From Candidatus Heimdallarchaeota archaeon (GTDB lineage Archaea > Asgardarchaeota > Heimdallarchaeia > JABLTI01): a stretch of DNA of 32,000 nt. Position 1 is the first letter of the stretch. The number at the start of each line of letters is the position of its first letter. The notes under the pieces were generated by a model, which saw only the letters and a list, made by a program, of their open reading frames with translations, was not told the origin of the DNA and did not search any database. Below are positions 1-30,360 of this stretch, piece by piece. The stretch lies in the NCBI GenBank assembly GCA_030614005.1, contig JAUWKS010000013.1:31466-63465 (forward strand). Direction: 5' to 3'. A program made the translations under genes and the position numbers.

Positions 1-3000
1 TTTGATATTTACTAGATGTGCTTGTTGTAGTGTGCTGGCGAGGTTCCCTTCTTGGAAGGCTTCCAAAGATTTCTTGAGGGCTACAAATTTCTTATTTTTC
101 AAAACACGCTGATCGTCAACTTTATCAAAAATTGCTTGAATGGCATTGAAATCCCAAATACGCAGTTTCTTTAGTGACGTTCTGATTAGTAGATCTAAGA
201 ATAAGTTAATGATTTTTGAATCAGAAGTAGCTTCAAGATATTTGAACATTAAACCATCATAAATCTTGGTTTCTTCAATAAAGCTTCCAGTTCGCTCATA
301 AATATCTGTTGCAGCAAAAACATATGGAATAGAATGGAAAATCAAATCTTTCTTACCAGAATTAAGCATTTTTTTAGCTTGGTCTAGTGCCTGAAATGCA
401 ATATCTTCTGCTTCTTCGATTTTATCTCTATTTGCATAAACCATTCCAGGAACAAGATAACAAATATATCCATCTTCAATGGGTACAGTGTTGAAGAGAT
501 TCTGGATAGTTGTTGCTATGATTTGAATGCTATTTTCATCTCCAGAGAGCTCATAATTTTCAAGAGAAGTCGAATAATAGTATAACCCTTCTTTGAATTT
601 CTCTTCTTTAATTTTCTGATCGCCAATACTTGCACTTGTCATTGCAACCTCAGCAATTAAACGATTATTTCCATAGATTTCATATATTCTTCCAGCAGCT
701 TTTAGGAAATTGATAGCGTCACTTAATTTCTTCTTATCTGCTGCTAGTTGACCTAGAGCTATACATTGTTTGCCGATTTCAATAATTCTTTCTTTTTGTC
801 CTAAATCATTCATTGCCGTTGCCAAAGTTTCCATAAGGACATCAAGGCCCTTGAAACGTTTCTTCGTCAAACTCTCAAGTATGGCCAATAGGTTATCAAT
901 TATTGCAATTCCAATTTGATGTTGTTTTGATATACTTGCTAATCTTAATGCTTGATCCTCTATTCTAATGGCTTTATCGAATGTGATTGCTTTTTGTAGC
1001 AATAATTCAGCAGTTTGATGCCAAGCCATAATCATATTGGCAAAATCTAAATTGCCAAGAATTGATAGTGGATGATTTGTGTTGATAATTGAATTGAGTA
1101 ATTTGATAATATTTTCTCTAGCAAAAATTACTAGGTCGATATTTGCTTCTTCAGTAATATCTTGGTTTAACTGAATTAATGGAAAAGTTATAACAGAGTA
1201 GAAGTCTTTTTCTGATAGGTTAATAACTAAATTAGTAACTATACTTAGTAGTTTTCTACCCTCATTTCTAGTTGACGATTCAATGCAAAGTATCCTACCA
1301 GTTTGAGCTAAGGTGCCAATGAACTTTCTAATTTCTTTAGTATCATTGGTTTCTAGATAAATACTCCTTGCCTGATTTACAGTTGCATCAAGTAATTCGA
1401 GTTTTTTATTTTTTACTAAATAATTAACATGATTCAAATAATTATTTGCAATATCAATCTTTAATTTCGAATTACCCGCTAAATCTGCTGCAGCAAAAGC
1501 AGCATCTAAAATACCTCTAGCTATTCTTGGTCCACGTGAAACAAGTAATTTCTTACCATAAACAGTTAGCATCTTGGATAAATTCTCAAGGCCTTTCTGA
1601 TTTTTCGTTTGGGTCAAGAATTTAGTGGTAGAATCAACAAATTGCCCAATGAGTTCCAGTCGGCTTTCTTCATCTTCTATACTCTTTTCATATTGTGGTC
1701 CTAATACTTGGGAAATAGTTTCAAGATAGTTTGCTCCCGCTCGAGATGCTTTTTCGAGTTTCGTTTCATATTGGATGATAAGCTCACCGCCGGCATTCAT
1801 AAATTGAATGCCTAAAATTGGATCTCCTTCTTTAATTAATTTCAAACCGAAATCAATACATCTATTTCCTACTTTAGGTAGATAATCGTTTAAACCTGCT
1901 CTTGTAGAAAGTTCCATTGCTTTTGAGAAATAGAGCGCTGCAATATCGAAATTGCGTTCGTTGAGCATTTTACCGCCTTGATTGATGAAGATTTCAGAGA
2001 TAACCATTATTCTTTCAGTTCGTTGAAGGAAGATATACAATCCTCCAGCAAGTTCAACTAAAGGCATTCCAGCATTAACGTTATTATTATCAATTTGTTT
2101 TCGACCTTCTGCTATGAGCTCATTAACAACATCTAATGATTCTTTGGTCAAATTCCCTTGAGCCAAAAGGTGAACACCATTTCTAAATGCTTCAACAGCA
2201 GCAGCCATTTCGTTTCTTTTTACAAGCGTTCGACCTAAATCAATACTGATTTGACCTATGCCTATGAGGTCATTTATTGTTCGGAGGATACCGATGCCAG
2301 AAGCAAGAATAACATGAGATGCTTCAAGTTTCCCATCCTCTCTAAGAATAATGCCTTGATTTCTACAAACTGTAGCTAAATGCTTTATTGAAGATTCATC
2401 AGTGATTTGAGCAATTTTTTCCATACCCTTATCAATTAATCGACTACCACCAACATTTCTTCCATATGAAATCAAGAGTGCTGCTCCTACAAAACACTTC
2501 TCAATACCACCTGTTATTTCTCCTTTAGCAAAGAGAGCATCAATCGCTGTGTTGATTAAATGGAACCCTTCCTTGGCTCTTTCGACTTCAATATAATTCT
2601 TTGCGTGGGTAAGAAGCTTTTCAGTGCCTAGGAATAAATCATCTGCAGAGGTCATTGCTTCAAAGGCAATTGGTAACATTTTGAAAGCGGTGTCATATTC
2701 TCTCTTTTTCTGGAGATTTAAAGCGATTTTGAATATTGTATTTGCTAAATGGATTAAGCGATTTTTCTTTCCAGTTCTTCTAAAGAGAGTAAAGCTTTCT
2801 TTGAATAATTCTATAGATTTCTCATAATCTTTAATTTCATAAAATGTTTGACCTTCAATCATACAGAGACGGCCAGTGAATTCTTCACCAACAATTGCAC
2901 CAATAGTGAGTGCAACTTCCCATAATCGTAATCCAGCCTCTGGATTATTACTTTTGATATTTGCTGTACCAAAAGCCATGACCTTTAGAGCAGTTTCTTC

Positions 3001-6000
3001 AACTTCTTTCAAACGATTATTTTGTTCCAAAATTTTAGCTATTTTACCATAACAGAGAATAGCATTTTCTATACTATTTGCTGCCATTAATTGATCTACT
3101 AACTCTTCCAAAAATTGAATTGCTTCTTCTACCTGACTAATTTCAGTTAAAATTTCTGCGCCTCGAATACCCCAAGAAACAGCAACTTCATTGTTCTTCT
3201 CTTTGAGAAACTCTTCACAAGTGTTGATACAGATGCCTGCAGCTTCGATATGGTTATTCACACTTTGGAGAATTTCAATAGTGAGATTAATGTAATTTGT
3301 TGCAGGGAGAAGTTTCCTTTCAGCAATTAAATTGCTTGAAAAAACTGCTACTTTATTTGCTAGCTGACTGATTTGTTTCAAATTTTGGGCTTGAATATAT
3401 ACTTTGTAGGTTTTTTCTAGACTAATTAAAGCTGCTTCATGCAGATCTTCTTTTGAGTAGACTTCCCATTCAGTAAGTTTAATCTGTCCATTTAGTTTCA
3501 AATCATTAATTTGCAATGCGAAATTCTCAGCTACCTGATAGAATTCTTGACTTCTTGCTGCTCTTACTGTTCCATCTAATTTTATTGTGGGAATACTACC
3601 TCGAACAATTTCTGTTGCTATATCGACTATTTGTGTGATAAGTTTAGTCAATTCTTTGTTTTTATTTAGACTTAGATAAATGTCACCCGTATTTCTGATT
3701 TTGGCTAAACCCTCTTCCAAATTATTATTTACAATATAATATTGACCCATTGAGTTATGTATTTCAGCAATTGCTGAACGGTCTTCTATAATAACGAATA
3801 ATTTTATAGCTCTTTCTAAAAGATTTATGCCAAATTGAGGTGTGTGGCTATGAAGGAATTTTTCACCTTCCATTCTTGCTGTTTGAGCTCCTTGAATAGT
3901 TTGCTCTGCATTATTCAAAGCTTCAATACCCAGAGTAATCATATTATTCGATTCAGGAAGCATATCTCTTTGGAAGAGCTCTCTTCCTTTTTCAATAATT
4001 TCTGCACCAACTATAGCTGCATGTCGAACTGATGAAGAAATATACAAATCAATTGAATTTCCATAGTATTTTGTTGAAAGCTCATATTGTTCTTTTTCTA
4101 AAAACTTTTTAGCAACTTCATAAGATCGACCAGCTTCCGCCTCTGTGTTTACTGCACCATCTATCTGAATGGCAACTTGATATCCTTTTTCAGCGTTAAC
4201 AAAATCACCTTTATTCAGTATAGTTGTGTATGTTTCAAAGCAATGATTAGCAACACCAGGATAAATTTGATCTTTTTCGGGTATTTTATTTTTTACTGAA
4301 GCAAGACGGTAATACTCAAAACTTTTTTCGTGATTATCATGTTCAGAATGATATCTTGCTAATGCAGAGAGAATTCTCGCTGCTTCTTCAGGTTGATCCG
4401 CTTTAGTGAACTCAACAGCTCCCTCCTCAAAAAGAGGGTCTGCATATTCAGTAAGGTTCTTTCGTAAGAAATCTGCAGCAAAACTTACCATAATTTTAGC
4501 TGCACGTTCATATTCTCCTGCTTCAGAAAGCACTTTGCCACTCCCTCGAGCCGAGGCAAGTGTGATATCATTTAGTTCTTCAAGATTGAATTTTCTAACA
4601 TTCCCTATGTGATCCTCAATAGTTTCTACGGCTGAATTAATATTTCGTTTAATTAATGCTCTCGAGAGTGTTTCATTAAACTCACAGGCAGCACTCCACA
4701 ATCCTTTGGCATTAATAATATCTCCAGTTTTTATACACTGCTCTGAATACTTTGTGGCGAGAAGAACTAATGGTTTGAATTTTTGCTCTCTAAGTTCTTC
4801 AGGAATTGTTTGAGCAGCAAGTTTCAATCGATCTAATGCAATGTCAAAATGGCCTTCTACTAATAGTTCATCAGCAAGTTTGACATATACATCTGCTGCC
4901 TCCTCGCTTTTCCCTGCTTCAATATATGCTTCAGCTGCTTTTGTTGCTAAATCAATGCCTGTTTGAAGATTTCTAACCTTAAACATAGGTTGCCACGAAG
5001 AATCAAGAGTATCTGCTGCTAGTTCTATTTCCCCTAATTCCATAAAGAACTCCGCACAAAGACGATACATTATCTCAGCATAATGGAAATCATTTTTACT
5101 AAATCGCTCTCGAGCGAGTTGTCGTATTTCACTGGGGATATCCACTCTTTCTTCGCTCTCAGGCAAATCTTTTAGTGGGTCAATCATTTTTTTGAAAGCT
5201 TCAGTGGCTAGTTGGAATTTGTTATATTTTAGTAGAAGCTCTGCTTCTTTCCTATAAACTACTACCTCAAAATTACGATCAATTAATCTTCCAATCTCAA
5301 TTGCAATATAAAAATAGTCTCTGCCAATTGGATATTGCTCTATTGTGTGAAGTTGGAGTCCTAATGAAATAATATTATTCCCAAATTCAATGGTTTTATC
5401 TTTATTACCAATTTCAATGTAATATTCTTTAGCCATATTATAGTAGGGAATTGCCTCTCGATAGAGTTTCTTTTCAAAAATAGCTAATCCAATTAAAGCT
5501 AGCTCACGTGCAAGAACCGTTATAGCTGGAACTGCTTTTCGAGTAATACAGATATCTTTTGCATGTTTAATTAAACGAATAGCAGTGCTATTATTAAAAT
5601 CAACTGCAGCTGCTTTCAAAAGTTGGTTTTCTGGGTCTAAAATTTCAGGAATTAAGCTCTCTATGTGAGAGACAAAATTTGCCATCACATTTTCAGCTGC
5701 TAGGATAATAGTTTCCTTATTATCAGTATTCATCTCAAGAAGTAGCTTAACAGCTTCGTCAAGTGTTTTCTCTCCTTTTTCAGCTTGACCGCTTTCAATA
5801 TATCTTTGAGAGAGTGATGTGTAGAAATCAATTGTGCCAATTTCATAATCAGCTTTTTTATAGAGTACTTTTGCTTTCTCTAAATACTCTTCCCCAATTT
5901 TCTCTTCGTCAGCTCTAACTCTTGCTTTAGATAATATTTGAATGGTATTTTCAATGTAAGCTTTAGCTGCCTCTAGGTATTTTCCTTTTGGATCCTTGCC

Positions 6001-6363
6001 AATTTTTTCATACTGATTTGCAATTGTTTCATTTATTTTGCCTACTAAATCAAACCTGTTTTCCTTTGTCTGGAAAATTATTGCTGCTTTCTCTAAGAAA
6101 TTTTCAGCACTAGTTTGAAATGACTCATATTCCGAATGATCCAGTTTTTCACTTGCATCAATAAAATAATTAATCGTTTGAATCAATATTTTTGAATCAT
6201 TTTTAGTAATTACTGCTTCAGCAATTTCCAGCATTAACCGAGAAGCTTCTTCAAAATTGTCTTTCTCGATAAAAACTTGTATTAACCTAAAGAATTCATC
6301 AACTGCTGCTCTTGTTGAGCCAGAGTTTAAGAGATGGCGTGCTTTTTCAATATTTTCAAACAT
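1..6363 (-). CDS. Giant alpha-helical repeat (TPR/alpha-SNAP-like solenoid) protein, >=2121 aa; 3' end lies beyond the window start
   Basis: Not in the ORF track because it has no stop inside the window. I read the minus frame from ATG 6363 (MFENIEKARHLLNSG...) to position 1 and found no in-frame stop; an upstream in-frame TAG sits at 6388-6390. The protein is a continuous run of helical TPR-like units (e.g. AAEAYIEAGKSEEAADVYVKLA, EEAARILSALARYH, EKSFEYYRLA) with no recognisable catalytic motif or TM segment. Confidence 0.93.
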   Translation of the reverse strand, partial: MFENIEKARHLLNSGSTRAAVDEFFRLIQVFIEKDNFEEASRLMLEIAEAVITKNDSKILIQTINYFIDASEKLDHSEYESFQTSAENFLEKAAIIFQTKENRFDLVGKINETIANQYEKIGKDPKGKYLEAAKAYIENTIQILSKARVRADEEKIGEEYLEKAKVLYKKADYEIGTIDFYTSLSQRYIESGQAEKGEKTLDEAVKLLLEMNTDNKETIILAAENVMANFVSHIESLIPEILDPENQLLKAAAVDFNNSTAIRLIKHAKDICITRKAVPAITVLARELALIGLAIFEKKLYREAIPYYNMAKEYYIEIGNKDKTIEFGNNIISLGLQLHTIEQYPIGRDYFYIAIEIGRLIDRNFEVVVYRKEAELLLKYNKFQLATEAFKKMIDPLKDLPESEERVDIPSEIRQLARERFSKNDFHYAEIMYRLCAEFFMELGEIELAADTLDSSWQPMFKVRNLQTGIDLATKAAEAYIEAGKSEEAADVYVKLADELLVEGHFDIALDRLKLAAQTIPEELREQKFKPLVLLATKYSEQCIKTGDIINAKGLWSAACEFNETLSRALIKRNINSAVETIEDHIGNVRKFNLEELNDITLASARGSGKVLSEAGEYERAAKIMVSFAADFLRKNLTEYADPLFEEGAVEFTKADQPEEAARILSALARYHSEHDNHEKSFEYYRLASVKNKIPEKDQIYPGVANHCFETYTTILNKGDFVNAEKGYQVAIQIDGAVNTEAEAGRSYEVAKKFLEKEQYELSTKYYGNSIDLYISSSVRHAAIVGAEIIEKGRELFQRDMLPESNNMITLGIEALNNAEQTIQGAQTARMEGEKFLHSHTPQFGINLLERAIKLFVIIEDRSAIAEIHNSMGQYYIVNNNLEEGLAKIRNTGDIYLSLNKNKELTKLITQIVDIATEIVRGSIPTIKLDGTVRAARSQEFYQVAENFALQINDLKLNGQIKLTEWEVYSKEDLHEAALISLEKTYKVYIQAQNLKQISQLANKVAVFSSNLIAERKLLPATNYINLTIEILQSVNNHIEAAGICINTCEEFLKEKNNEVAVSWGIRGAEILTEISQVEEAIQFLEELVDQLMAANSIENAILCYGKIAKILEQNNRLKEVEETALKVMAFGTANIKSNNPEAGLRLWEVALTIGAIVGEEFTGRLCMIEGQTFYEIKDYEKSIELFKESFTLFRRTGKKNRLIHLANTIFKIALNLQKKREYDTAFKMLPIAFEAMTSADDLFLGTEKLLTHAKNYIEVERAKEGFHLINTAIDALFAKGEITGGIEKCFVGAALLISYGRNVGGSRLIDKGMEKIAQITDESSIKHLATVCRNQGIILREDGKLEASHVILASGIGILRTINDLIGIGQISIDLGRTLVKRNEMAAAVEAFRNGVHLLAQGNLTKESLDVVNELIAEGRKQIDNNNVNAGMPLVELAGGLYIFLQRTERIMVISEIFINQGGKMLNERNFDIAALYFSKAMELSTRAGLNDYLPKVGNRCIDFGLKLIKEGDPILGIQFMNAGGELIIQYETKLEKASRAGANYLETISQVLGPQYEKSIEDEESRLELIGQFVDSTTKFLTQTKNQKGLENLSKMLTVYGKKLLVSRGPRIARGILDAAFAAADLAGNSKLKIDIANNYLNHVNYLVKNKKLELLDATVNQARSIYLETNDTKEIRKFIGTLAQTGRILCIESSTRNEGRKLLSIVTNLVINLSEKDFYSVITFPLIQLNQDITEEANIDLVIFARENIIKLLNSIINTNHPLSILGNLDFANMIMAWHQTAELLLQKAITFDKAIRIEDQALRLASISKQHQIGIAIIDNLLAILESLTKKRFKGLDVLMETLATAMNDLGQKERIIEIGKQCIALGQLAADKKKLSDAINFLKAAGRIYEIYGNNRLIAEVAMTSASIGDQKIKEEKFKEGLYYYSTSLENYELSGDENSIQIIATTIQNLFNTVPIEDGYICYLVPGMVYANRDKIEEAEDIAFQALDQAKKMLNSGKKDLIFHSIPYVFAATDIYERTGSFIEETKIYDGLMFKYLEATSDSKIINLFLDLLIRTSLKKLRIWDFNAIQAIFDKVDDQRVLKNKKFVALKKSLEAFQEGNLASTLQQAHLVNIK

Positions 6364-6596
6364 CGTTAGTTTTACAACCCACAAAGCCTATAATATAGTG
6401 CAAGATCTTTTTATTTCTACTTCTAATTGAATATAGACTATTTACTTATATATTTGACTCTTATCCAAATAAAAATTGTGTTTAATGATATTCTTCGAAG
6501 ATTTAAACATCTTCAAATAGGCAAAGTAATTTCCCATGGTCAGTATTTATATTAGATGCTTTATTATGTTATACAATTAACATAGGTGAATATACA

Positions 6597-7986: not shown

Positions 7987-9762
7987 CTAAACTTGACTCC
8001 TATAGACAATTGCATTCGGTACTCCCGCAATATTAGCTACGACTATTAATCCGTGCTGTGAAAAGAATTCATGAATGTCAAAGAAATATAGAGTCACTCT
8101 TTGAATATCAGTCGTTCGAACAACAACATACGTACCTTTTATTGAGAATTTTTCTAAAGTATCACTATCATTCAGTCTCCATATTGGACTTGTAAATTGT
8201 GAACGTATGAAAGTAATTGAAATATTTTTATTCAAATAAGCGTAACCACCTGTATACCAAACCATTTCTAGAACAATAAGCCTTTCAGAATCTTCTTGTT
8301 GCCCTACCCAGTACATTGCATTACAGATGCCTGAATTCCATTTCCACATATAGTTTTTCTTAACTAATCCCATATACAATGAAGATGTGCTTAACATAAC
8401 CAGAAGTAAACCTAAAACAACATATTGAAACTGTTTTCTTTTAACCAATTTCGAAAATTTGTAAATACCATTAGCAACGAAAAGCATGCCAAGGGGAAGA
8501 AAGGTCATTATAAATCTAAATTCTTTATGAGCAATGGATGAGAAAATTGCTAACCAATAGAACATTAAAATTAAAACGAATACTTTTGACTTGGTCTTTT
8601 CCTTAAAAATAAGTCCAAAAATGAGTAAGAAAAAAAAGATGAATATGAAGATATAGGCGAAATCAGTGAAAAATCCGGCAAAGTATTGGAACCAGGGAGA
8701 CGTACCATGATATGCACTATTGCCTTCCACAATATTATATCGAAAGTAATTGATAGGCGAATGAAGAAAGGTACCCCAAGTAAATAAATCTAATAATCCC
8801 TGGAAGAGAACCATCAAAAATGCTCCCCCACAAAAACTTGCTAGAGTTGAAAACGAATTAAGATATTCACCTCTACTTAGAGGTTCATATGTTTTCTCTT
8901 TCTTCTTAGCTAACGTTCTAAATGAAATAGCTATTTTTCTGCAAACATCTACAATAGGTTTGTATAAAATTGCAATTGCTAGAGGTATCCCCATAAGAGC
9001 TCCTGGAAATCGTATCATAAAAGATAGTCCTAATGAAAGTCCGGCAATTGCAGAAAGAGTGACTTTCCTCTTCGCTTTTTCATGTCTTATCGCCTTATAA
9101 ATTAGAAAAATGCTTAGAAAGAGAAAATCAGAAGACAATGAATCTGTCATAGTTCGACTCGCCCAATAAGGGAAAAACCACCAAGTACCACAAATAAATG
9201 CACTTATTAAACCAACGATTTTATTAAACATCTCTTTGCCAAATAGATATGAAACTACAACAGTAATTATTGAGAAAAGAGAAAGAAATAATCGAGCCGA
9301 ATAAATCAAAACCAATGGATCTGTTATTCCGAAGAGCATTAGAAATTTATAGACCCCAACAAGTATTAAAACAAAGAACCATGACCTTGCTCCACCAAAT
9401 CGATAAGCAGTGTTGTATTCCCAAGGAATGGTTTGACCTGTTCCATATTCCCCATATATCCAATAATGAATCATTTCAAGCGATTGAAAGACTTCATCAG
9501 GATGAACAAACCCTTGGGATTCTTGTGCAGCTAAGAGACGAAGAAGAATGGATAAAATGATAATAACTGTCAAAGGTAAATAATTGAATATTTTTTTGAA
9601 AAACGTTGTACTAACAACATCAGAGAAATTCTTTCTAGTGGGCATGTGTTCATTCACTTTTTCTTGATCATGAATGGAGAATTGAGTTTTAGTAGGTTGG
9701 TCTCCATCGAGCAAAAGCCATTCTCTCCAGTTTAGGTATACAAGGTTAGAAATATTAACCAT
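7987..9762 (-). CDS. GT-C fold glycosyltransferase family 22 (PIG-B/GPI10-, ALG9-like mannosyltransferase), multi-pass membrane protein
   Basis: FVHPDEVFQSLEMIH resembles the PIG-B first luminal loop (FVPDEYWQSLEVSH, recalled); also PWEY...RSW, SRTMTD and HKEFRFI; about 10-12 hydrophobic segments. The true start may be the downstream ATG (MPTRK). Confidence 0.85.
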   Translation of the reverse strand: MVNISNLVYLNWREWLLLDGDQPTKTQFSIHDQEKVNEHMPTRKNFSDVVSTTFFKKIFNYLPLTVIIILSILLRLLAAQESQGFVHPDEVFQSLEMIHYWIYGEYGTGQTIPWEYNTAYRFGGARSWFFVLILVGVYKFLMLFGITDPLVLIYSARLFLSLFSIITVVVSYLFGKEMFNKIVGLISAFICGTWWFFPYWASRTMTDSLSSDFLFLSIFLIYKAIRHEKAKRKVTLSAIAGLSLGLSFMIRFPGALMGIPLAIAILYKPIVDVCRKIAISFRTLAKKKEKTYEPLSRGEYLNSFSTLASFCGGAFLMVLFQGLLDLFTWGTFLHSPINYFRYNIVEGNSAYHGTSPWFQYFAGFFTDFAYIFIFIFFFLLIFGLIFKEKTKSKVFVLILMFYWLAIFSSIAHKEFRFIMTFLPLGMLFVANGIYKFSKLVKRKQFQYVVLGLLLVMLSTSSLYMGLVKKNYMWKWNSGICNAMYWVGQQEDSERLIVLEMVWYTGGYAYLNKNISITFIRSQFTSPIWRLNDSDTLEKFSIKGTYVVVRTTDIQRVTLYFFDIHEFFSQHGLIVVANIAGVPNAIVYRSQV

Positions 9763-9841: not shown

Positions 9842-11962
9842 TTGAGCGACTATATACATACTATCAGCTTCAAAGTTCTCATAGATTCTGAAGTGGTGGA
9901 TTTTACGTTTAGAGTTCCACGAGGAACGTTGCTAATCCAAGTATTGGATGAACTTGAAACAACGCTGAAAATTCAGCCAAGGGTTATTGCTACAGTAAAT
10001 CATGATGGAGAAATAGTTATTATCGAAAACCATTATTCCACCGTTGAGTACCTTATGCAAAAACATGGAACTGATTTTTATGCTGGCGGATCAAGTATTG
10101 TGACATTCAATCATGGAGAATACATTATTGATCTAGAAGTTCCAGAAGCAATTCCATTTGCATCATCCTTTAGAACAGCCTGTAAAAGCTTCTCGATAAT
10201 GCCAAGAGATGTCTCTATGGAAAGACAAGATGGTCAAGTGATGGATTATGAAATATTTCGTATGCCCACCGCTTTTGTGCTAAACTCTTGGGGGAATTTT
10301 TATCGAATTGTTGATCGCGAATTAGGTGATCCTTTAATTGATCCACCAAAAGCAGTTGAAGAAGAGTCGCTCACACATACAGAGCAAACTTCTGAAGAAA
10401 TAAAATCGGAACAAGATTCAATGGTCTACCCACCGAAATTAGATGGTTCTGAATTAATAGATGCAGCTTCAGTAGTATCTGAAATAGATACTTTGACTGA
10501 TCATTTTGTTGAATCCTCCTTATCTGATGACCAAGAAAAACCAACAATTGAATCATTAATGGATGAAATACGTATAGATAGTGAAACCGATTTAGACGAT
10601 GACGAAGAGGAGTTTATGACTCAAGCAATTGACGAACCCTTAGCAGATTCTGTTATTACAGATGTTTCACACATAGAGGAGAAGGAGGAGGAACCTGAAG
10701 GCGTTCCCCTAAGTGAAGTGATTGATTTTGACGATGAAATAGAAGCTTTAGAGGATGAAACAATTGCTGATGAAGAGGAAGAAGATGATTTAGAAATTTT
10801 TGCCCAAGATTATGAAGAAGTAACGGATTTTGAAGAAGTTGATACTGAAGAACAAATTTCCGATGAATTTGTTGATGAGGATGAAGAGGTCATTGACGAT
10901 CTTCCAATTGAAGAAACTTCTCCATCATTTGAAGAAATGATAACAACTTCTGTAATAGAAGAGAAAGTAGAATCAGATGAAGTTGAAGAACCTGAGGAAG
11001 AAAAAATAGTTACTCAACCATTTGATGATGAGCAATTTATTGATTCAATCAATGATCATTATGTTGAAAAAGATACGAGTGATCAAATACCAGTATTCTC
11101 TACTGATGAAACAGAAATAACCGAAGATGTTGAGGATGAAGACTTAGACGAAGACCCTCAAGCATTGGATGATTTGACGGAAGATATGGTTATCAAATCC
11201 GAAGATATTTTCGAATCTGATCTCAAAGAGATAGATGAAGTAACTGAACAACCAGTAGTTGCTCCTATTCAGGATGATTTGTCTTTAGACCAAAGATTAG
11301 AGATTAGAAAACAAGAGCTAGTTACTCTTGAAAAAATCTTAAGTGAAGAAGAGAAATTAAAAGTAAAGATACAACAAAGGACAATTACCATCGATTATTA
11401 TGAGAAAATGAATCCACGAAAAATATATCCAATAGCGGTGAAAATTTCACCTACTACTTCACCTAAACAAAATAAATTCACTGACCAACTAAAGATTGTA
11501 CCGATATTTCCAGGTTGTTATGTAACTCCCCATCAAGAAATTATTGAAATAAATGGTGAAAGTGATATTGATACAGAATTCACTGTAACACCTCTAATTA
11601 GCAAAGGAATAGTAAATGGAAAACTTGGTATCTGGTATAAAGAAAGAAATATTCTCAATATCAATACTAGATCAAAAATAAGGAATTATTCGGGTTGCAT
11701 TGTTAGTAGCATATTGGCATTTCTATTTGGAATTATGCCTTTTATGTTTTTAATATTCAATTTTAATTTTAATGAAGCTTTAGCAACTGGAATAAATAAC
11801 ATTCTTTCAACATCATTGACAACTACTTTGTTAATGATTATTGAAATAATTCTGTTAGTAGTTTTCCTTGGCCTAATGGTAGGGTTTATTTTCGTAGGGA
11901 AACCAGCAAAACGAAAAATAAAACGCAAATTTTATCCTGTTGCACCTCAATCTGATGATTAA
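9842..11962 (+). CDS. Membrane-anchored protein: two tandem UFM1-like beta-grasp domains, long acidic disordered linker, coiled coil, predicted beta-sandwich, two C-terminal TM helices
   Basis: Residues ~8-83 (SFKV..VP..T..VL..DG..T..KHGT..AGG) and ~86-162 (LEVPEAIPF..DG..TAFVLNSWGNFYRIVDRELG) align by eye to UFM1. D/E-rich residues ~173-470; two hydrophobic helices and a basic tail KPAKRKIKRK. Confidence 0.8.
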   Translation: MSDYIHTISFKVLIDSEVVDFTFRVPRGTLLIQVLDELETTLKIQPRVIATVNHDGEIVIIENHYSTVEYLMQKHGTDFYAGGSSIVTFNHGEYIIDLEVPEAIPFASSFRTACKSFSIMPRDVSMERQDGQVMDYEIFRMPTAFVLNSWGNFYRIVDRELGDPLIDPPKAVEEESLTHTEQTSEEIKSEQDSMVYPPKLDGSELIDAASVVSEIDTLTDHFVESSLSDDQEKPTIESLMDEIRIDSETDLDDDEEEFMTQAIDEPLADSVITDVSHIEEKEEEPEGVPLSEVIDFDDEIEALEDETIADEEEEDDLEIFAQDYEEVTDFEEVDTEEQISDEFVDEDEEVIDDLPIEETSPSFEEMITTSVIEEKVESDEVEEPEEEKIVTQPFDDEQFIDSINDHYVEKDTSDQIPVFSTDETEITEDVEDEDLDEDPQALDDLTEDMVIKSEDIFESDLKEIDEVTEQPVVAPIQDDLSLDQRLEIRKQELVTLEKILSEEEKLKVKIQQRTITIDYYEKMNPRKIYPIAVKISPTTSPKQNKFTDQLKIVPIFPGCYVTPHQEIIEINGESDIDTEFTVTPLISKGIVNGKLGIWYKERNILNINTRSKIRNYSGCIVSSILAFLFGIMPFMFLIFNFNFNEALATGINNILSTSLTTTLLMIIEIILLVVFLGLMVGFIFVGKPAKRKIKRKFYPVAPQSDD

Positions 11963-12053: not shown

Positions 12054-12272
12054 ATGAATGATTTCAACGCATTCCTTGGACCAAAAGGTTTACTAGCATT
12101 TGCAATTATTTTCGTAATTTTAGGAATAGCCGCACTCGCATGGTTATTCATGTATCAAGAAGCAGACCCTGATAGAACATTTCGTGGTTCAGTAGCTAGA
12201 GCGTTTTCTGCATCAATGTTTTTAGGATTTTCAGCCTTTCTCTTTGTTATTTGGAGCGGCGTACTAATATAA
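12054..12272 (+). CDS. TMEM258: OST5/TMEM258-like oligosaccharyltransferase small subunit (2 TM)
   Basis: LGIAALAWLFMYQ...ASMFLGFSAFLFVIWSGVLI matches recalled human TMEM258 IGMFFTAWFFVYE...[20 protein letters not shown] in motif, spacing and length (72 aa). Confidence 0.8.
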   Translation: MNDFNAFLGPKGLLAFAIIFVILGIAALAWLFMYQEADPDRTFRGSVARAFSASMFLGFSAFLFVIWSGVLI

Positions 12273-12331: not shown

Positions 12332-13078
12332 TCAATGGTATTTTGCATTTGAGCATTTGTTCCTAGATTTAATCTTGATGGAATCAAAGAGCATTGAACC
12401 GATATCAATGAATAATAATCTATTAGTTAACAATGGTTTTTCTTTTAACATAACTCTAGTAGCTTCGGCAATCTGTAAACTACCAATTAACTGTATTATA
12501 CTCGGATGAATGCCAGTTTCTGCTGAAGATGGAAGTGCATTATCATCAATATGACCAAATAAACACTCGATACAAGCGCCTCCTCGAACAACTGTCATTA
12601 CATTCCCTGCTAAACCGCTAACCGCACCAAATAGGAAAGGTATATCGCTTTCTAAGCATTTCTTGTTAATTGCGAATCTTGATGTGAACCTATCTAAAGC
12701 ATCAATAACAAAATCAACATTATCAGTTACAAGATCAACATTTCTAGTAGAAACCTCTTCTTGAATGATTTCAATTTTAACATCTGGGTTTAGCTTTTCT
12801 AAGAATTTTTTAGCCGCATTTACCTTTGGTTTGCCTACATCCTTTTCACGGTATAGCATTTGTCTTTGTAAATTTGATAACTCAACAATATCTTTGTCAA
12901 AAAGTCGCAGGTGACCCACACCTAATGCTGTAAGTTGAGTTGCAGTAACAGAACCAAGACCTCCAGCTCCAACAATTGAAACTCTTGCTCGTCGAATTTT
13001 TTTCATACCCTCAACACCAATTGTTGGGAGATTAACAAAACGAGAATATCTGCCTGTAGAAAAATTGTTTTCGTTCAA
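12332..13078 (-). CDS. ThiF/MoeB/HesA family E1-like adenylyltransferase
   Basis: RYSR, VSIVGAGGLG, FDKDIVELSNLQRQ, VGKPKV, DALD, CIEC, IGSLQIAEA. Start placed at TTG 13078 (GGAG about 10 nt upstream); the ORF-track start at 13111 overlaps the HD gene. Confidence 0.92.
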   Translation of the reverse strand: MNENNFSTGRYSRFVNLPTIGVEGMKKIRRARVSIVGAGGLGSVTATQLTALGVGHLRLFDKDIVELSNLQRQMLYREKDVGKPKVNAAKKFLEKLNPDVKIEIIQEEVSTRNVDLVTDNVDFVIDALDRFTSRFAINKKCLESDIPFLFGAVSGLAGNVMTVVRGGACIECLFGHIDDNALPSSAETGIHPSIIQLIGSLQIAEATRVMLKEKPLLTNRLLFIDIGSMLFDSIKIKSRNKCSNAKYH

Positions 13079-13082
13079 ATCT

Positions 13083-13673
13083 TTATTTCTCCATAAGTAG
13101 TTCTTTTGCAAGTTTCTTAACTAAGCTAAATTCATAATTGTCAACTTCTTTATTGAAACTAATGAAAAAATCACTAAACATCTCTTTAGAGAGGCCATTT
13201 CGAATATAATTGTTCAGCTGAAGAATTGTTTCAAGACGATCTGCTTCAGATACAATCCTTGCTTCTATTGATTTCTTTTCCTGAAATTCAGCGAAATATT
13301 CTTGCAAAATTTTCCCTTGTTCTTTAGGGAGCTTTGCAAATAATGATTTTGCCGCATTTTTATCAAGGTCATGTTTGAATGCATCATATTTTTCCGGAGA
13401 GAATTTTCTTATGCAACGATTAATATCTTGAGATACACTTTCTGAGAGATCATGAATATGGGCCATAATTAGTGCTTTCTCTAGATTGATTTCCTTTCCT
13501 TTAGCTTTTTCATCAAAACAGATTAGCATAGTTATCATAGTAACAAATTGACTGTGGTCTGCAACACTCTCTACATCTGAAAGCGGAACACCGGAGTAAA
13601 TCCAACCACTTCTAACAATTCGTTTAAGGCGGATGGCTTCTTGTAAAAATGACAATAGATTAATTTCATGCAT
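13083..13673 (-). CDS. HD-domain phosphohydrolase, YfbR/HDDC2-like 5'-deoxynucleotidase family
   Basis: LKRIVRSGW, ESVADHS, AHIHDLSES, EARIVSEADRLE. Confidence 0.88.
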   Translation of the reverse strand: MHEINLLSFLQEAIRLKRIVRSGWIYSGVPLSDVESVADHSQFVTMITMLICFDEKAKGKEINLEKALIMAHIHDLSESVSQDINRCIRKFSPEKYDAFKHDLDKNAAKSLFAKLPKEQGKILQEYFAEFQEKKSIEARIVSEADRLETILQLNNYIRNGLSKEMFSDFFISFNKEVDNYEFSLVKKLAKELLMEK

Positions 13674-24054: not shown

Positions 24055-24287
24055 GAAAGTATATTTTTGGAATAATTTTATTCGTAAGAGAAACTAACAG
24101 CCTTTTTTTTCTTTGTTATACCCATAACACAATACTTTTTTGCATACAATTCAAAAATATGCTATCTGATAATTTGTTGCTAATAGTTAAATTGCTCGTA
24201 ATTTTGTAAATTAGGTTCATTTACACAAATGAATAAGCAGAATAATCAAATTATTAACTATTGAAATCCTGTTTGGAGAGAAAAAAC

Positions 24288-25937
24288 ATGCCAGAAGTAG
24301 GTCTAGGAGAATTCGATGATCAAGAAGTATTAAAGAAATCGCTTGTGGCATTCGAAAAAACCAAAAAAGAGATTCAAGATCATATTCTTGAAAGAACCGC
24401 AGTTGTTCCTGATGTAACTTTAACTGAAATAGAAAAAGAATTCAATATTTCCACAGAACTCGCGAAAGCAATTTTTGTGTTAGAATTTGAGTATTATATT
24501 CCGAGGAAACTTTCAGCAAATTGTTACCTCTCTGAAATGAAGAGACTTACAGAAGCTCAATATGAATTGCCGGATATTTACTCTTTTAGAGTAAGGTATT
24601 CAATGGAAGAAGGTTTTTGGATTAAATATCTAGTAGTGGATCTTCCAAAAAAACTTGAACATAAAATGGGTAAACTGAAAAAAATCTATTGTTCTCTATT
24701 TGGCGACCTCGCCGCGGATAAAGAAGACGCAGCCGTATATATTATCGAAAGAGCTTTTATCTGTAGTGAGGTAATAAGACCAATTATCCATTCTTGGATG
24801 AAAGAGCATCATCGAGCAAAGTATTCTGATTGTGTGAAAACATTTTTGTGTAGCATCCAACGAAAAGCAAGAGAAAAGTGTTTACCATTAGTGGAAGAAA
24901 TTGGCAATAGATTTCATTCACAGATGGATTCACTAAGAAGTATCATTACCGAAATTCGACCAAAAGGGTGGATAATGAATGCAAAAGAAGAATATAATAA
25001 ACTTTCAGAGAAACTAATACTATTTGAAAAGGAAGACTACCTTGATTGGCGATTAGCTGCAGAAATTATTTTAGAAACAATGTTGTTGAGAGATTTTGAT
25101 GATCAAGATAAAGAAGAAACAGATTTTGTAGTTAAAGAAATGCCAAAACAAAAAGAAAATATTGTAACTCAAATGATAACAACAAAAAAGGAAAAATACC
25201 TCACAGATGATATTTCAGTAATTCTTACAAAAATAGTTGATTTATCTGAAGAGAACCAGAAACCGCTAATAGAAGAGATGATACAAGAAAATTATGATCA
25301 TGCAACAGTCAAAAACCGAGTAAAACCAGCTATTTTCTCAAAGATTTTTCTTGAAAGGATTATGACTGAACTGATGATTGGAAATAAAGAAATAGTCAAA
25401 ATAACAAAGAAATTTGATGTACAACTTATGTTTCGCTTATCTCCTGCTGGAGGAAAAGAATTTCCACATTTAGGAATAGATGACAAAATAACTGGATTGC
25501 TTGAAGAATTTGTTATGGATATTCTACAAAAACAAAATGAGCTAAAAATGATTTCTACAGAAGAAACTATGAGGGAGAAAGCTGAGCAATCTATTGAAGA
25601 GAGCGAAAAACACTCAGAAGAAGTAGACTCGACAAAGAAAAGTCAAGTGGTTGGGAAAATAAAGGAATCGAGTGAAAAGGAATTATGGTTATTTGTAAGA
25701 GATGAATACTTGAAAGAATTATTCGATAGTGAGAAAGAATTAGTTGCAGGAGCAAGAATTCTGAAGAAATATTCACTTGAACTGGGATTATTAATGACTG
25801 AGGGAGAAGCAACGTCATATCTAACCTCTGAACTCGATAAGAAGGGCTTTTCTATTGAAAGCTCAAGCAGAGAAGATATTGATTCAAATGTGTGCAAAAT
25901 CGTTTTCAAACAGTTGAAAGAATTGAGGAAATACTAA
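24288..25937 (+). CDS. Hypothetical soluble alpha-helical protein (~550 aa)
   Basis: Long ORF; GGAGAG SD before ATG 24288 (ORF-track start 24261); no recognisable family motif. Confidence 0.85.
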   Translation: MPEVGLGEFDDQEVLKKSLVAFEKTKKEIQDHILERTAVVPDVTLTEIEKEFNISTELAKAIFVLEFEYYIPRKLSANCYLSEMKRLTEAQYELPDIYSFRVRYSMEEGFWIKYLVVDLPKKLEHKMGKLKKIYCSLFGDLAADKEDAAVYIIERAFICSEVIRPIIHSWMKEHHRAKYSDCVKTFLCSIQRKAREKCLPLVEEIGNRFHSQMDSLRSIITEIRPKGWIMNAKEEYNKLSEKLILFEKEDYLDWRLAAEIILETMLLRDFDDQDKEETDFVVKEMPKQKENIVTQMITTKKEKYLTDDISVILTKIVDLSEENQKPLIEEMIQENYDHATVKNRVKPAIFSKIFLERIMTELMIGNKEIVKITKKFDVQLMFRLSPAGGKEFPHLGIDDKITGLLEEFVMDILQKQNELKMISTEETMREKAEQSIEESEKHSEEVDSTKKSQVVGKIKESSEKELWLFVRDEYLKELFDSEKELVAGARILKKYSLELGLLMTEGEATSYLTSELDKKGFSIESSSREDIDSNVCKIVFKQLKELRKY

Positions 25938-26543: not shown

Positions 26544-27782
26544 ATGTCAATGAAAGCAGATTTCATAAAAGAATTAGAAATTTCTACATTCTCAAAACCA
26601 ATTCTAAAAGAAATGGGCGTAAAAGCAATCTTCTTAGTCACTTTTGACATTATCCTAGGACCAATAGCCTATGTCAATAAACTCTCTACAGAAAAAAGTG
26701 AGTATCTCGAATTTTTGCAACAGAATATAGCGCACCTAGGAGAATTTTACACTGGAATATCACATGCACAAATCGATAAAGTAACAACAAGAACCGGAGA
26801 AGAAATGCTTGTAGGACGAGCAACAAGAAAAGTAAATGAAATGGAACTAATAGATATCGCCGTAGCTTTAGTGGACTCAACAGAATATCATAATGAAATT
26901 GTTAAGATGCTAAAATTCGTTGTGAGAACGTCATATGGCAATCCAAAAAACTTTTGTGATTTATTAGACAGAGTGTTGCTGGAATATCAAGACCTCGGAA
27001 AGAAAAAAGCAGAGGCAGGAAAATTCGCCGTATTCAAAGATGCTTCAAAGGAAAAAGTGGCGAATATAGCAAAGCTATATCACAATTGGAAAGGAGTACT
27101 ATTCATAGATTTTGAAGGAGATAACATAAACAGCTCATTTATGCCGGATTGGATTGAAGCGAGTAAAATAAATTCGCAGGAATTAGCTCAGAAAACGAGA
27201 AATATGTACGCAGAAGGAGTTATCATTCCAAGATCTAAACAAATATTTTCGATGGTAAGCATAAAAGGCAAACAAGTAATCGTTGTATCAACAAATAATT
27301 CACGCTATGTAACAATCATTTTCCCGACAGCAGATGGAATGACAAAAATATCAACAATAGCAGAAAATATGGATATTATTAACGAGGCACTGAGCGAAGT
27401 GGGAATGCAATTCAGCACAGATGCAATGAAGAATACTCTCGAGATAATCGATAAAAGAATAAGAGAAAATGATACCAGCGTCTTAATGAAAGAAGTAATT
27501 GTAGTAATGTTAAGATCCGAAGAGTTGATGCCAAAGAAAAAGATAAAACAAGAAGAATTTGAAGCATTTCAGGGAGAAATACAAAAGAAATATTTTCAAG
27601 GATTGAATAAAGCATTCGAAGAATTTGATGGCACAAAAACAATCTTAGAAATAACTCATAGAGTAAATGTTAGTTTAGAGCAAATGGGTGATTTTGTGGT
27701 GTTTTGTATGACAAGGGGAATTGTGCAGGTCTTTACTAAAAATGGCCGAACAAGAAAAACAGATGGAAAAGTTGTTATCTAA
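26544..27782 (+). CDS. Longin/uDENN-type N-terminal domain protein with C-terminal winged-helix-like domain (NPRL2-like layout)
   Basis: KAIFLVTFDIILGP fits the hhhhxF(D/H)xxxGP longin/uDENN opening motif; C-terminal FDGTKTILEI...VFCMTRGIV resembles the NPRL2 winged helix (recalled PYIDG...LLYYGVV). Confidence 0.6.
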   Translation: MSMKADFIKELEISTFSKPILKEMGVKAIFLVTFDIILGPIAYVNKLSTEKSEYLEFLQQNIAHLGEFYTGISHAQIDKVTTRTGEEMLVGRATRKVNEMELIDIAVALVDSTEYHNEIVKMLKFVVRTSYGNPKNFCDLLDRVLLEYQDLGKKKAEAGKFAVFKDASKEKVANIAKLYHNWKGVLFIDFEGDNINSSFMPDWIEASKINSQELAQKTRNMYAEGVIIPRSKQIFSMVSIKGKQVIVVSTNNSRYVTIIFPTADGMTKISTIAENMDIINEALSEVGMQFSTDAMKNTLEIIDKRIRENDTSVLMKEVIVVMLRSEELMPKKKIKQEEFEAFQGEIQKKYFQGLNKAFEEFDGTKTILEITHRVNVSLEQMGDFVVFCMTRGIVQVFTKNGRTRKTDGKVVI

Positions 27783-28080: not shown

Positions 28081-28899
28081 ATGTATCAAGATGATTTGGG
28101 AAATTTCCATAGAACAGATGCAGAAGAAAATGTTTTGTGGGGGATGAGACTATTAAAAATAGGATTCATTCTCTTAATAATATGTTTTACAGCATATTTC
28201 ATAGAATCAATAATAGAATTGTATACAGGACTAGGTCATTATACAATAGATCCGACATACTCCTTTAACAAAATAAAAGCATATTATATAATGATAATGT
28301 TTTTGGCAATATTCACAACTACTTTTACAGGATCAATTTATGTGCTTGGAATGGGAACTGTATTTTTGAGTAGGATCTTACCAGAACCTGTGAAAAAGAG
28401 CCTGAAGATAACGGGGATACTATATCTAATACTAATACCTCTGAACTTGCTAAAAATAATAATTATATATAGTATTTATGCAAATTCCTCATTAGTTACA
28501 GATATCTCAAGAATAAGTAGAATAATAACCAATATAGTTTATTCAGTAAAAGTACTAGAATTTCTAATGCTGATAGTAATAGCTATGCTACTAGCAAAAG
28601 AACTGAAACAAATGAATGAAATGCAAAGAGGAAAAAATGGTACGGTAGTTTTACCGGGAATTTTAGTAGCAGCATTCATTATCTGGTTAACAGGAGGAAT
28701 AATGTTTTACGTTGTAGTAGATAAACCAGATCCATACGATGTGCTAGAACCAGTGCTAAATACTGCAATATATCTAGAAGGAATAGGTCAAATACTCTAT
28801 TGTGCAATAGCAGTTGGAGTATTCATAGCACTACTAGTAAAAGCAAACAAAATAGTGATACCTCCTTTAGCAGTAATAAACAGAAGTGGTTATTACTAA
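28081..28899 (+). CDS. Hypothetical polytopic membrane protein (~6 TM)
   Basis: 272 aa, repeated hydrophobic helices; GAAGGGG SD-like sequence upstream. Confidence 0.85.
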   Translation: MYQDDLGNFHRTDAEENVLWGMRLLKIGFILLIICFTAYFIESIIELYTGLGHYTIDPTYSFNKIKAYYIMIMFLAIFTTTFTGSIYVLGMGTVFLSRILPEPVKKSLKITGILYLILIPLNLLKIIIIYSIYANSSLVTDISRISRIITNIVYSVKVLEFLMLIVIAMLLAKELKQMNEMQRGKNGTVVLPGILVAAFIIWLTGGIMFYVVVDKPDPYDVLEPVLNTAIYLEGIGQILYCAIAVGVFIALLVKANKIVIPPLAVINRSGYY

Positions 28900-29298: not shown

Positions 29299-30360
29299 TC
29301 AAAAATTCAAGCCAAAAAAAGATTGCTTTTCAATTTGTTGTTTAAGACTAGGTTTGATTTGTATACAAATATCCGTTACTAAAGTCATTAAATCTTCTGG
29401 AGTTTGTTTGGTAAATTTCTGGAATTGTTCACTATCAAATTTGCCATTAGAACACATTCCTAACAATTCAATACATTTAGTAATAATATTACTCATTTCC
29501 TTTTCAAATGATGCTCGAATGTCAATTTCAGTTTTTTGCTTTCGCATTTTTTTTACCAGAGCACGTAAAATTTTTGTACCATTTAAACCGGAAGCTGTTC
29601 CTTTTTCCAAAGAAATAATTGCTACATCAGCATTTTTGTAATTTATTTCAGAAGCTTGAGGAACACCAATAACATTAGCTGTTTGAGGGTCTACATATGA
29701 ACTTGTATAAGTGATTACGTTTTGAAAGGGAAACGGAGTAAGTAGATTTAGGATAGCTATTGTTTGAGATGCAGATATTAGATCACTACAAATGATGATT
29801 GGTTTGAAAGACAATAAGGCATAAATTACTACATCTAAATTAGATTTAATATGGTCAAAAAGAAAAGTGATAGAAACATCGGTAGGGGCATTCATTTTAG
29901 CGCGAAAATAAGCTAGATTTTCTTCGGAAAACCTACTCATCTCAGAGAAACGTTGATCATATATTGAAAAAACGGCATCAATAATTCCATTTAATATCTG
30001 TTCTTGCTTATGTGAGAAGATGAGACCGGTATGAACTTCTTGAATTTCTTGAATCTCAGAAATAATTTTAGATACTATTTCAGAGAGAATCTTATCTATT
30101 ATTTCCTTTTCATAAGCTACATTAATATCCTTGATTATAACAACACCAAAATTCTTACTTATTTTAATATAGATTTCATGTGTTTGAGTAGCAAAATAGT
30201 TCGCTTCACCAACATCCATAGTAGCTAAAAAAGTCTGAATGGCTGTAATAGCTCCTGAGAAAAGAGTAGCTCGTTCAATAGATTCTTTTCCTTCTGACTT
30301 TAATTTTCGGAAATAAAGAGGAAGTCCACTTTGAGAGATAATATATATGGCATCTAACAT
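29299..30360 (-). CDS. Longin + cDENN (+ helical dDENN-like) protein, DENN-type small-GTPase regulator homolog
   Basis: N-terminal longin (AIYIISQSGLPLYF...LFSGAITAIQTF); cDENN-like LFDHI..NLDVVIYALLSFKPIIICS...LLTPFPFQ...VIGV. Confidence 0.75.
   Translation of the reverse strand: MLDAIYIISQSGLPLYFRKLKSEGKESIERATLFSGAITAIQTFLATMDVGEANYFATQTHEIYIKISKNFGVVIIKDINVAYEKEIIDKILSEIVSKIISEIQEIQEVHTGLIFSHKQEQILNGIIDAVFSIYDQRFSEMSRFSEENLAYFRAKMNAPTDVSITFLFDHIKSNLDVVIYALLSFKPIIICSDLISASQTIAILNLLTPFPFQNVITYTSSYVDPQTANVIGVPQASEINYKNADVAIISLEKGTASGLNGTKILRALVKKMRKQKTEIDIRASFEKEMSNIITKCIELLGMCSNGKFDSEQFQKFTKQTPEDLMTLVTDICIQIKPSLKQQIEKQSFFGLNF

Follow-up and report, generated by a model that had tools for sequence, protein, structure and literature searches.

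The gene described here lies at positions 9842 to 11962, forward strand, of a 32,000-nucleotide stretch (the window) from a Candidatus Heimdallarchaeota archaeon (GenBank assembly GCA_030614005.1, contig JAUWKS010000013.1, positions 31,466 to 63,465), and encodes a protein of 706 residues that opens with two back-to-back beta-grasp domains (residues 1-83 and 84-162). Sequence profiles and the predicted fold identify the second domain as a remote but real homologue of UFM1, and the first is also UFM1-like, without the C-terminal tail of the modifier; we regard both domains as established in fold and in homology. Behind this head come a long acidic linker, a conserved module and two predicted transmembrane (TM) helices. 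We think it probable that the head is a permanently tethered ubiquitin-like (UBL) adaptor, neither cleaved off nor attached to other proteins.

In the mechanism that we propose, a protein anchored by a membrane hairpin would display a rigid UFM1-like beta-grasp pair in the cytoplasm, on a flexible, acidic, motif-bearing linker of about 300 residues. The head would be descended from a free Asgard Ufm1 modifier and act as an integral (type-2) UBL domain, staying attached and recruiting or holding a partner at the membrane, with neither E1 activation nor conjugation. The partner could be a protein that binds UFM1 or UBLs, such as an AAA+ unfoldase or proteasome component, an E2, or a winged-helix protein like UFL1 or DDRGK1. 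We infer the membrane topology, the lack of cleavage and the non-covalent recruitment.

Both head domains are UFM1-like

To draw the architecture, 39 full-length homologues were aligned and a Kyte-Doolittle hydropathy scan was made; the start residue agrees with that of the homologues (MSGYIH...). The features that concern the head are:

9842..11962, forward strand: whole gene, 706 residues, TTG start codon with a GAGGT motif upstream
Residues 1-165: head, highly conserved, column identity 76-95%
9842..10090, forward strand: domain 1 (residues 1-83), UFM1-like beta-grasp without C-terminal tail, from hhalign, the AlphaFold2 (AF2) strand-helix order, tandem-UBL Foldseek matches and conservation
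10091..10327, forward strand: domain 2 (residues 84-162), UFM1-like beta-grasp ending ...RELG162, from Pfam, a PDB profile search, hhalign and VIA-align
10325..10330, forward strand: Gly162-Asp163, both invariant, Gly162 standing where UFM1 has Gly83, with 544 residues remaining downstream of it

An earlier note on this DNA, made by a model from the sequence alone, had claimed two tandem UFM1-like domains here and proposed to check each against Pfam. For domain 2, all 14 family members compared have Pfam Ufm1 (PF03671) as their best match (lowest E 9.4e-6), the window's own copy lying under the 27-bit gathering cut-off (E 0.026, 14.9 bits); domain 1 found no match in Pfam. A profile of domain 2 ranked 13 UFM1 chains first among PDB sequences (E ~0.06-0.11), the domain-1 profile found no PDB sequence match, and a PDB search with the single sequence found none either. 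Over the 399 Asgard genomes that we searched, the Pfam Ufm1 model never attains its cut-off, which makes it unusable for mapping Asgard Ufm1. Direct hhalign comparisons were weak, both between domains 1 and 2 (E 0.046) and between single-head relatives of the protein (alignment A6; see below) and domains 1 and 2 (E 0.021 and 0.005, respectively).

A significant link to UFM1 was obtained only by way of the free Asgard Ufm1 proteins. Their alignment, which includes copies fused to UFC1, matched domain 2 at E 6e-8 (prob 94.7), domain 1 at E 2.4e-6 (prob 88.9) and the single-head relatives at E 1e-13, and it matched eukaryotic UFM1 in the PDB end to end at E 0.004, with its ...drgvvG lying on ...PRDRVG.

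The predicted fold agrees with this assignment, and here the check proposed in the earlier note bore its claim out. The AF2 model, built from 38 sequences, reached a moderate pLDDT of 61 (an input of 12 sequences gave 40) and arranges strands and helices alike in the two domains, in the order that a beta-grasp demands: a pair of strands and a helix, then one or two more strands and a second helix, with a final strand modelled in domain 2 only. The top Foldseek matches span both domains and are tandem UBLs (linear di-ubiquitin, ISG15, FAT10 and OASL), with alignments that stop at residue 162; for 5xda_G the TM-score was 0.73 by target. When residues 81-161 were compared by VIA-align, the six best rows were all UFM1 (Z 8.9-9.4, rmsd 2.0-2.4 A over 72-74 residues, 19-22% identity), followed by SUMO and ISG15 at 7-10% identity and within about one Z unit.

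The small margin over SUMO and ISG15, the moderate model confidence, the sub-threshold Pfam score of the window's own copy and the failure of domain 1 to match Pfam or PDB sequences would all suit domains that merely have the common ubiquitin superfold, are not specifically related to UFM1 and play no part in UBL signalling, serving for example as scaffold spacers or oligomerisation units. However, UFM1 came first in every independent test, whether Pfam, the PDB profile or the six best VIA-align rows; the profile-profile E-values to Asgard Ufm1 are those given above; and the Asgard Ufm1 proteins themselves match eukaryotic UFM1 end to end and adjoin UBA5-like and UFC1-like genes. We therefore hold so generic an origin to be highly improbable.

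An invariant glycine ends domain 2 but not domain 1

Each of the 38 aligned homologues has Gly162 and Asp163 unchanged, whereas residues 157-161 drift, giving endings such as RELG, KDLG, RESG, RTKG and QPEG. In the VIA-align superposition, model residue 161 pairs with UFM1 residue 82, and Gly162 therefore corresponds to Gly83 of UFM1. The end of domain 1 is different. Its Gly82 is invariant, and residue 83 can be G, E, S, D or N in different family members. The profile alignment has domain 1 stop three residues past a conserved Phe, whereas free Ufm1 runs nine residues from there to its terminal Gly; the UFM1 tail has therefore been lost, and domain 1 continues directly into the first strand of domain 2.

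These results divide what the earlier note had said about processing. Both domains lie where it placed them, and its assignment of the Gly at 10325-10327 to the position of the mature C-terminal Gly of UFM1 is borne out by the invariance and alignment of Gly162. Its other suggestion, that the di-glycine at 10085-10090 is a processing motif of domain 1, falls with the variability of residue 83 and the absence of a homologous tail. Conservation of GG and RELG, which it had proposed to examine, holds for Gly162 itself and fails both for residue 83 and for the residues that precede Gly162. It had left open whether the protein is a precursor that gives off a modifier, or two of them, or else a module permanently tethered to the membrane; the evidence favours the tethered module, and the release of domain 1 is not supported, there being no conserved or homologous terminal Gly at which to release it.

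Measured against a conjugatable modifier, the protein thus has a Gly at the Gly83 position in domain 2 only, and in place of a free C-terminus or a short removable tail it continues for 544 residues that hold conserved motifs, a conserved module and two predicted TM helices.

A motif-bearing linker and a membrane anchor that carries other heads

The region downstream of Gly162 contains the following features:

10328..11266, forward strand: acidic linker of variable length (residues 163-475; 313 residues), Asp+Glu 39%, net charge -112
10421..10441, forward strand: conserved linker motif 1, M-V-Y-P-P-K-L (residues 194-200), from the alignment
10481..10513, forward strand: conserved linker motif 2, E-I-D-x-L-T-D-H-F-V-E (residues 214-224), from the alignment
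10544..10570, forward strand: conserved linker motif T-I-E-S-L-M-D-E-I (residues 235-243), from the alignment
11267..11692, forward strand: conserved C-terminal module, predicted to be cytoplasmic (residues 476-617): first a helical stretch, then a PxFPGCxVxP and FxVTPL segment
11696..11758, forward strand: predicted transmembrane helix 1 (about residues 619-639), from the Kyte-Doolittle scan
11828..11896, forward strand: predicted transmembrane helix 2 (about residues 663-685) with the invariant Glu668 inside, from hydropathy and conservation
11897..11959, forward strand: basic C-terminal tail (residues 686-706), net charge +5, with a conserved RKFYP motif

In the linker, at least three to five short motifs are conserved; FLTxP and YPWE/K motifs are further present in most homologues, lying between linker motif 2 and TIESLMDEI. 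The C-terminal module (residues 476-617) has no Pfam or NCBIfam match, and we tentatively read its PxFPGCxVxP/FxVTPL segment as beta-rich. Because positive charges stand both before TM1 (+3) and after TM2 (+5), the protein is predicted to form a membrane hairpin with both termini inside (N-in/C-in), which would place head and linker in the cytoplasm. By alignment and predicted TM helices it thus falls, as a functional class and not by homology, among the integral UBL proteins, in which a UBL is part of a larger, membrane-anchored polypeptide. A separate observation at the nucleotide level is a hairpin with a 6-bp stem followed by a T-rich run at window positions 10313-10331 (forward strand), exactly over the D-R-E-L-G-D codons at the boundary between domain 2 and the linker; the surrounding 2.7-kb region contains 6 terminator-like sites, against 1.1 in shuffled sequence.

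The region from residue 476 to the end of the protein recurs in 71 of the 399 Asgard genomes, in open reading frames (ORFs) of 320-730 residues that share the signature YFxRMxPxKxYPL ... PxFPGCxVxP ... FxVTPL and the two-TM hairpin (loci L057-L075); one such paralogue is found in the window's own genome (G000:C90:4191-4868). The N-terminal heads borne by this anchor vary and include single UFM1-like domains, a Ras/Roc-like domain (L073) and several of unrecognised type, joined through acidic or Pro-rich linkers. These observations point to a general-purpose anchor module, and to a modular Asgard family built as a head on a tether. In the single-head relatives, a UFM1-like head of about 90 residues ends R-x-x-V-N-G-P-N-L, with an invariant Pro after the Gly. 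One family with such a protein (f19) has it in 5 genomes, only 1 of which has UFC1; the genomes without it include G141, which is assembled as a single contig and does have the tethered relative.

The tandem head itself is narrowly distributed. A phmmer search with residues 1-172 among 1.84 billion representative proteins returned 16 proteins at E <= 1e-10, all from this one family; apart from fragments at contig ends they are 640-890 residues long, with 61-92% identity in the head. Three further matches (P0018-P0020) were discarded as low-complexity repeat proteins. A word-indexed search gave 41 clusters, each unnamed or labelled 'hypothetical protein' and all lacking a precomputed Pfam domain, whose named sources are nearly all Heimdallarchaeota or 'Asgard group' metagenome-assembled genomes (MAGs); the only stand-alone copies of domain 2 that it returned were fragments. 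Feature searches of the ESM Atlas scored below 0.9 and were used as leads only. The domain-2 profile matched 11 of the 399 Asgard genomes, once in each, and all 11 belong to the window's own GTDB family (two genera). In all 41 clusters and all 11 genomes that carry the tandem head, the gene is a single, unsplit ORF.

Asgard genomes with and without a UFM1 conjugation cassette

Picchianti et al. (PMC10183829) classed UFM1, UFC1 and UFSP2 as exclusive to eukaryotes. More recently, Koestlbacher et al. (2026; PMC12962969) described Ufm1 homologues in nine Asgard clades, noting partial hits, proteins hit in more than one region and long disordered stretches at the termini. Our profile of the single heads retrieved stand-alone Asgard proteins of 87-100 residues that end ...RGVVG followed by a stop or by 1-3 further residues. 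In six of these (L083-L086, L093 and L094, from genomes G031, G015, G016, G014, G012 and G011) the ORF stops right after ...RGVVG, so that the mature form is encoded directly and there is no tail to remove; others have short C-terminal tails, such as ...VVG-GN and ...LLG-DDF. The same profile retrieved proteins in which a Ufm1-like domain is fused N-terminally to a UFC1 domain through a linker of about 20-25 residues (L087:974-1750, L088:1411-2229, L091:1453-2286 and L102:1420-2235); three of these four score 26-29 bits against Pfam UFC1 (cut-off 25). Presumably such fusions need cleavage to work.

A complete UFM1-type cassette is present in genome G136 (contig C1, ~1,037,500-1,040,800; L108:203-2040, L125:1010-2443). 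There, a 93-residue Ufm1 (...VVGGN) lies between an E1 and a UFC1-like gene of 192 residues, and a JAMM protein of 477 residues adjoins the E1. In the PDB, this E1 matches UBA5 best (E 2e-47, vs 1e-26 for MoeB). Cassettes of UBA5, Ufm1 and UFC1, with or without JAMM, and Ufm1-UFC1 fusions were seen in G136, G145, G010, G109, G277 and G280.

None of this machinery was found in the 12 genomes of the window's GTDB family, MAGs that are 64-92% complete. An Asgard UFC1 profile, with G145, G010 and G136 as positive controls, found no UFC1-like E2 in any of the 12, and the free Asgard Ufm1 profile retrieved only the tandem protein and no ORF of about 90 residues. Searches with Pfam Ufm1, UFC1, Peptidase_C78 and E3_UFM1_ligase gave no match above cut-off. 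A weak Peptidase_C78 match, considered as a UfSP protease, lies in a 407-residue ORF that we took, on inspection by eye and with no family search, for a GNAT-type acetyltransferase; weak E3_UFM1_ligase and DDRGK matches were likewise set aside, falling below cut-off on small proteins and coming from models that also respond in control genomes. When the G136 cassette (JAMM, UBA5-like E1, Ufm1 and UFC1) was searched by tblastn against the window's own genome, which is 90% complete, it matched nothing but three generic paralogues of ThiF (29-32% identity), for none of which UBA5 is the best PDB match. The cassette-type JAMM itself had no tblastn match there, although four other JAB/MPN proteins exist.

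The genome does hold other conjugation-related genes. It encodes three E1-like enzymes and three UBC-type (UQ_con) E2s, with a UBA1/NAE-like E1 on contig C91. A stand-alone ubiquitin-family gene lies ~9 kb before the window start (G000:C123:22284-22478; Pfam ubiquitin, E 1.4e-13), with no adjoining E1 or E2.

A probable tethered adaptor and its rival, a membrane-bound precursor

We favour the tethered adaptor for several reasons. UBA5, UFC1 and free Ufm1 are absent from the family's 12 genomes yet present in other Asgard archaea, the tethered heads of f19 occur independently of UFC1, and the same anchor bears unrelated heads elsewhere. The position after the glycine is constrained, being Asp163 here and the invariant Pro in the single-head relatives, and the linker has conserved motifs and is more than an inert spacer. 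Split copies of the gene do not occur, and the neighbouring E1 (see below) is of the MoeB/ThiF type, lacks a crossover Cys and has other likely substrates. The single-head junction has a parallel in ubiquitin-Pro junctions, which are poor deubiquitinase substrates.

Several observations count against a permanent tether. The invariance of Gly162 exactly at the UFM1 Gly83 position, while the preceding residues drift, is unusual for an integral UBL domain, since such domains usually lose the terminal Gly; in the single-head relatives, too, the R-x-x-V-x-G tail is the best-conserved part. The Ufm1-UFC1 fusions are presumably cleaved, so a long C-terminal extension alone leaves room for processing, and the four JAB/MPN proteins of the window's genome are potential proteases. 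Gene absences were judged from the incomplete MAGs described above. A complex prediction that paired residues 1-165 (the head) with residues 186-262 (the motif-bearing part of the linker), run without controls, scored 0.28 against a mark of 0.32, which counts neither as support nor as contrary evidence.

The same glycine would be explained if a JAMM/MPN or other protease cut after Gly162 and freed a di-UFM1 modifier resembling ISG15 or FAT10, which would then be activated and attached, the rest of the protein being a membrane-bound pro-region that restricts the site of production. A tandem fold whose structural alignments end at residue 162 would suit such a modifier, the short-tailed Ufm1 proteins and UFC1 fusions imply processing in the lineages that have them, and proteases, E1-like enzymes and E2s of other types are encoded in the genome. 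Yet the family's genomes have no UBA5-like E1, UFC1 or cassette-type JAMM, and in f19 tethered heads and UFC1 are distributed independently; Asp163, or Pro in the relatives, is conserved together with the motifs downstream; the supposed pro-region is a conserved and widespread module that also carries non-UBL heads; and the neighbouring E1 has no thioester Cys. On balance we consider release of a modifier unlikely. If it did occur, the protein would represent a new kind of UBL precursor.

In a more specific form of this idea, a host metalloprotease would cut the membrane-bound pro-form after Gly162, and the adjacent Cys-less E1 would activate the di-UFM1, which would then be joined to targets without a UFC1-type E2. 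If true, this would be a second, membrane-gated route of UFM1-type tagging, independent of the UBA5-UFC1 cassette, and an archaeal counterpart of ISG15 and FAT10; we judge it very unlikely.

The neighbouring E1 and other genes of the window

The E1 gene (window 12332-13111, reverse strand) is MoeB/ThiF/UbaA-like. At the aligned position of the crossover-loop Cys, the window copy has Ser and the nine orthologues compared have no Cys either (Ser, Thr or Ile across the set), one of the nine having a Cys one residue later, and the second zinc pair (CxxC) of the window copy is degenerate. This suggests an adenylation-only enzyme. ThiS/MoaD-type proteins are encoded elsewhere in the genome and are likely able to serve as its substrates.

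A tethered head might still engage such an enzyme, binding the adjacent E1 or a UBC-type E2 non-covalently and thereby concentrating sulfur-transfer or ubiquitin-type chemistry at the membrane. The two genes are 370 bp apart in an arrangement kept in all ten related loci, the genome holds the ubiquitin gene, UBA1/NAE-like E1 and three UQ_con E2s mentioned above, and plant membrane-anchored UBLs (MUBs), which recruit E2s, offer a precedent. However, it is the whole 10-kb block (bCASP-GT22-UBL-Ost5-E1-HD-PAC2-...) that is syntenic in all ten loci, and since these come from close relatives, the adjacency of the UBL and E1 genes adds little. Moreover, the E1 gene lies on the other strand, converging on the UBL gene, and its overlap with the HD gene looks like that of two genes in an operon of their own, and distant members of the anchor family do not have the same neighbours, Ost5 being the one neighbour examined. 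An adaptor devoted to this E1 or to a UBC-type E2 therefore seems to us quite unlikely.

Ost5 is subunit 5 of oligosaccharyltransferase. A two-TM protein of 72 residues, encoded 92 bp downstream of the UBL gene (window 12054-12272, forward strand), matches Pfam Ost5 above cut-off (E 4.8e-8), a match that we take as genuine. It is kept within the family synteny, but more distant relatives with the anchor lack it as a neighbour, and we therefore did not count it as a component of the system. On the other side, an Alg9-like GT22 mannosyltransferase gene (window 7987-9762, reverse strand; Pfam E 1.9e-48) diverges from the UBL gene, with start codons 79 bp apart. Farther away, a very long open frame (window 1-6384, reverse strand) encodes at least 2128 residues and runs off the window edge. 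Four sizeable ORFs, at 24261-25937, 26544-27782 and 28081-28899 on the forward strand and 29299-30360 on the reverse strand, have no Pfam match at E <= 0.001.

Comparison with known systems

The tandem head is like ISG15 and FAT10 in having two head-to-tail beta-grasp domains, which Foldseek aligned through residue 162. Those modifiers have a free or near-free terminal GG and a dedicated E1 and E2, whereas the window protein continues beyond its single Gly, and no cognate enzymes were found.

With the Ufm1 of the UBA5-Ufm1-UFC1 cassettes and fusions, the protein shares a homologous UBL whose Gly aligns with the ...VG end of the free modifier. The cassette Ufm1, however, is either free (87-93 residues, ending in VG or in VG plus 1-3 residues) or fused to an E2, and stands beside an E1 and an E2, partners that are lacking in the genome and family of the window protein. 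Similarly, the Asgard Ufm1 proteins described in PMC12962969, and eukaryotic UFM1, have in common with the window protein a UFM1-type beta-grasp, detectable homology and a single Gly at the Gly83 position; unlike them, it has a tandem duplication and 544 more residues, including a membrane hairpin, and occurs in genomes without UBA5, UFC1 or free Ufm1. The available portion of that paper contains no description of a membrane-tethered Ufm1, and so, while Asgard UFM1 homologues are already published, the tethered tandem architecture appears to be undescribed.

Asgard Ufm1 homologues were reported only in 2026. Our results add that, in some Asgard lineages, UFM1-like domains are built into a membrane-anchored, motif-rich scaffold and persist in genomes that have neither UBA5 nor UFC1. 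Because the domains are built in, persist without these enzymes and sit on an anchor that elsewhere bears other heads, including a Ras-like one, our data point to a role of the UFM1 fold at the membrane, independent of conjugation, in the archaea most closely related to eukaryotes, as well as to the modular tether family. Eukaryotic UFM1 acts almost entirely at the membrane of the endoplasmic reticulum (ER), and these results bear on how it acquired this link.

Eukaryotes also hold cytoplasmic beta-grasp domains at membranes, through a hairpin or a lipid anchor, to recruit a partner and not to be conjugated. In HERPUD1/Usa1, TMUB1/2, the UBX-hairpin proteins UBXD8/FAF2 and the prenylated MUBs, that partner is a ligase of ER-associated degradation, p97/Cdc48 or an E2. 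We found no sequence homology between the window protein and the eukaryotic integral-UBL membrane proteins, from which it differs in its UFM1-type tandem UBL, its polyacidic linker of ~300 residues and its Asgard-specific anchor. The resemblance of its predicted N-in/C-in hairpin to those of HERP and UBXD8 is one of analogy only, and it is this arrangement, a cytoplasmic UBL head held at a membrane by a hairpin, that the Asgard protein would share with them.

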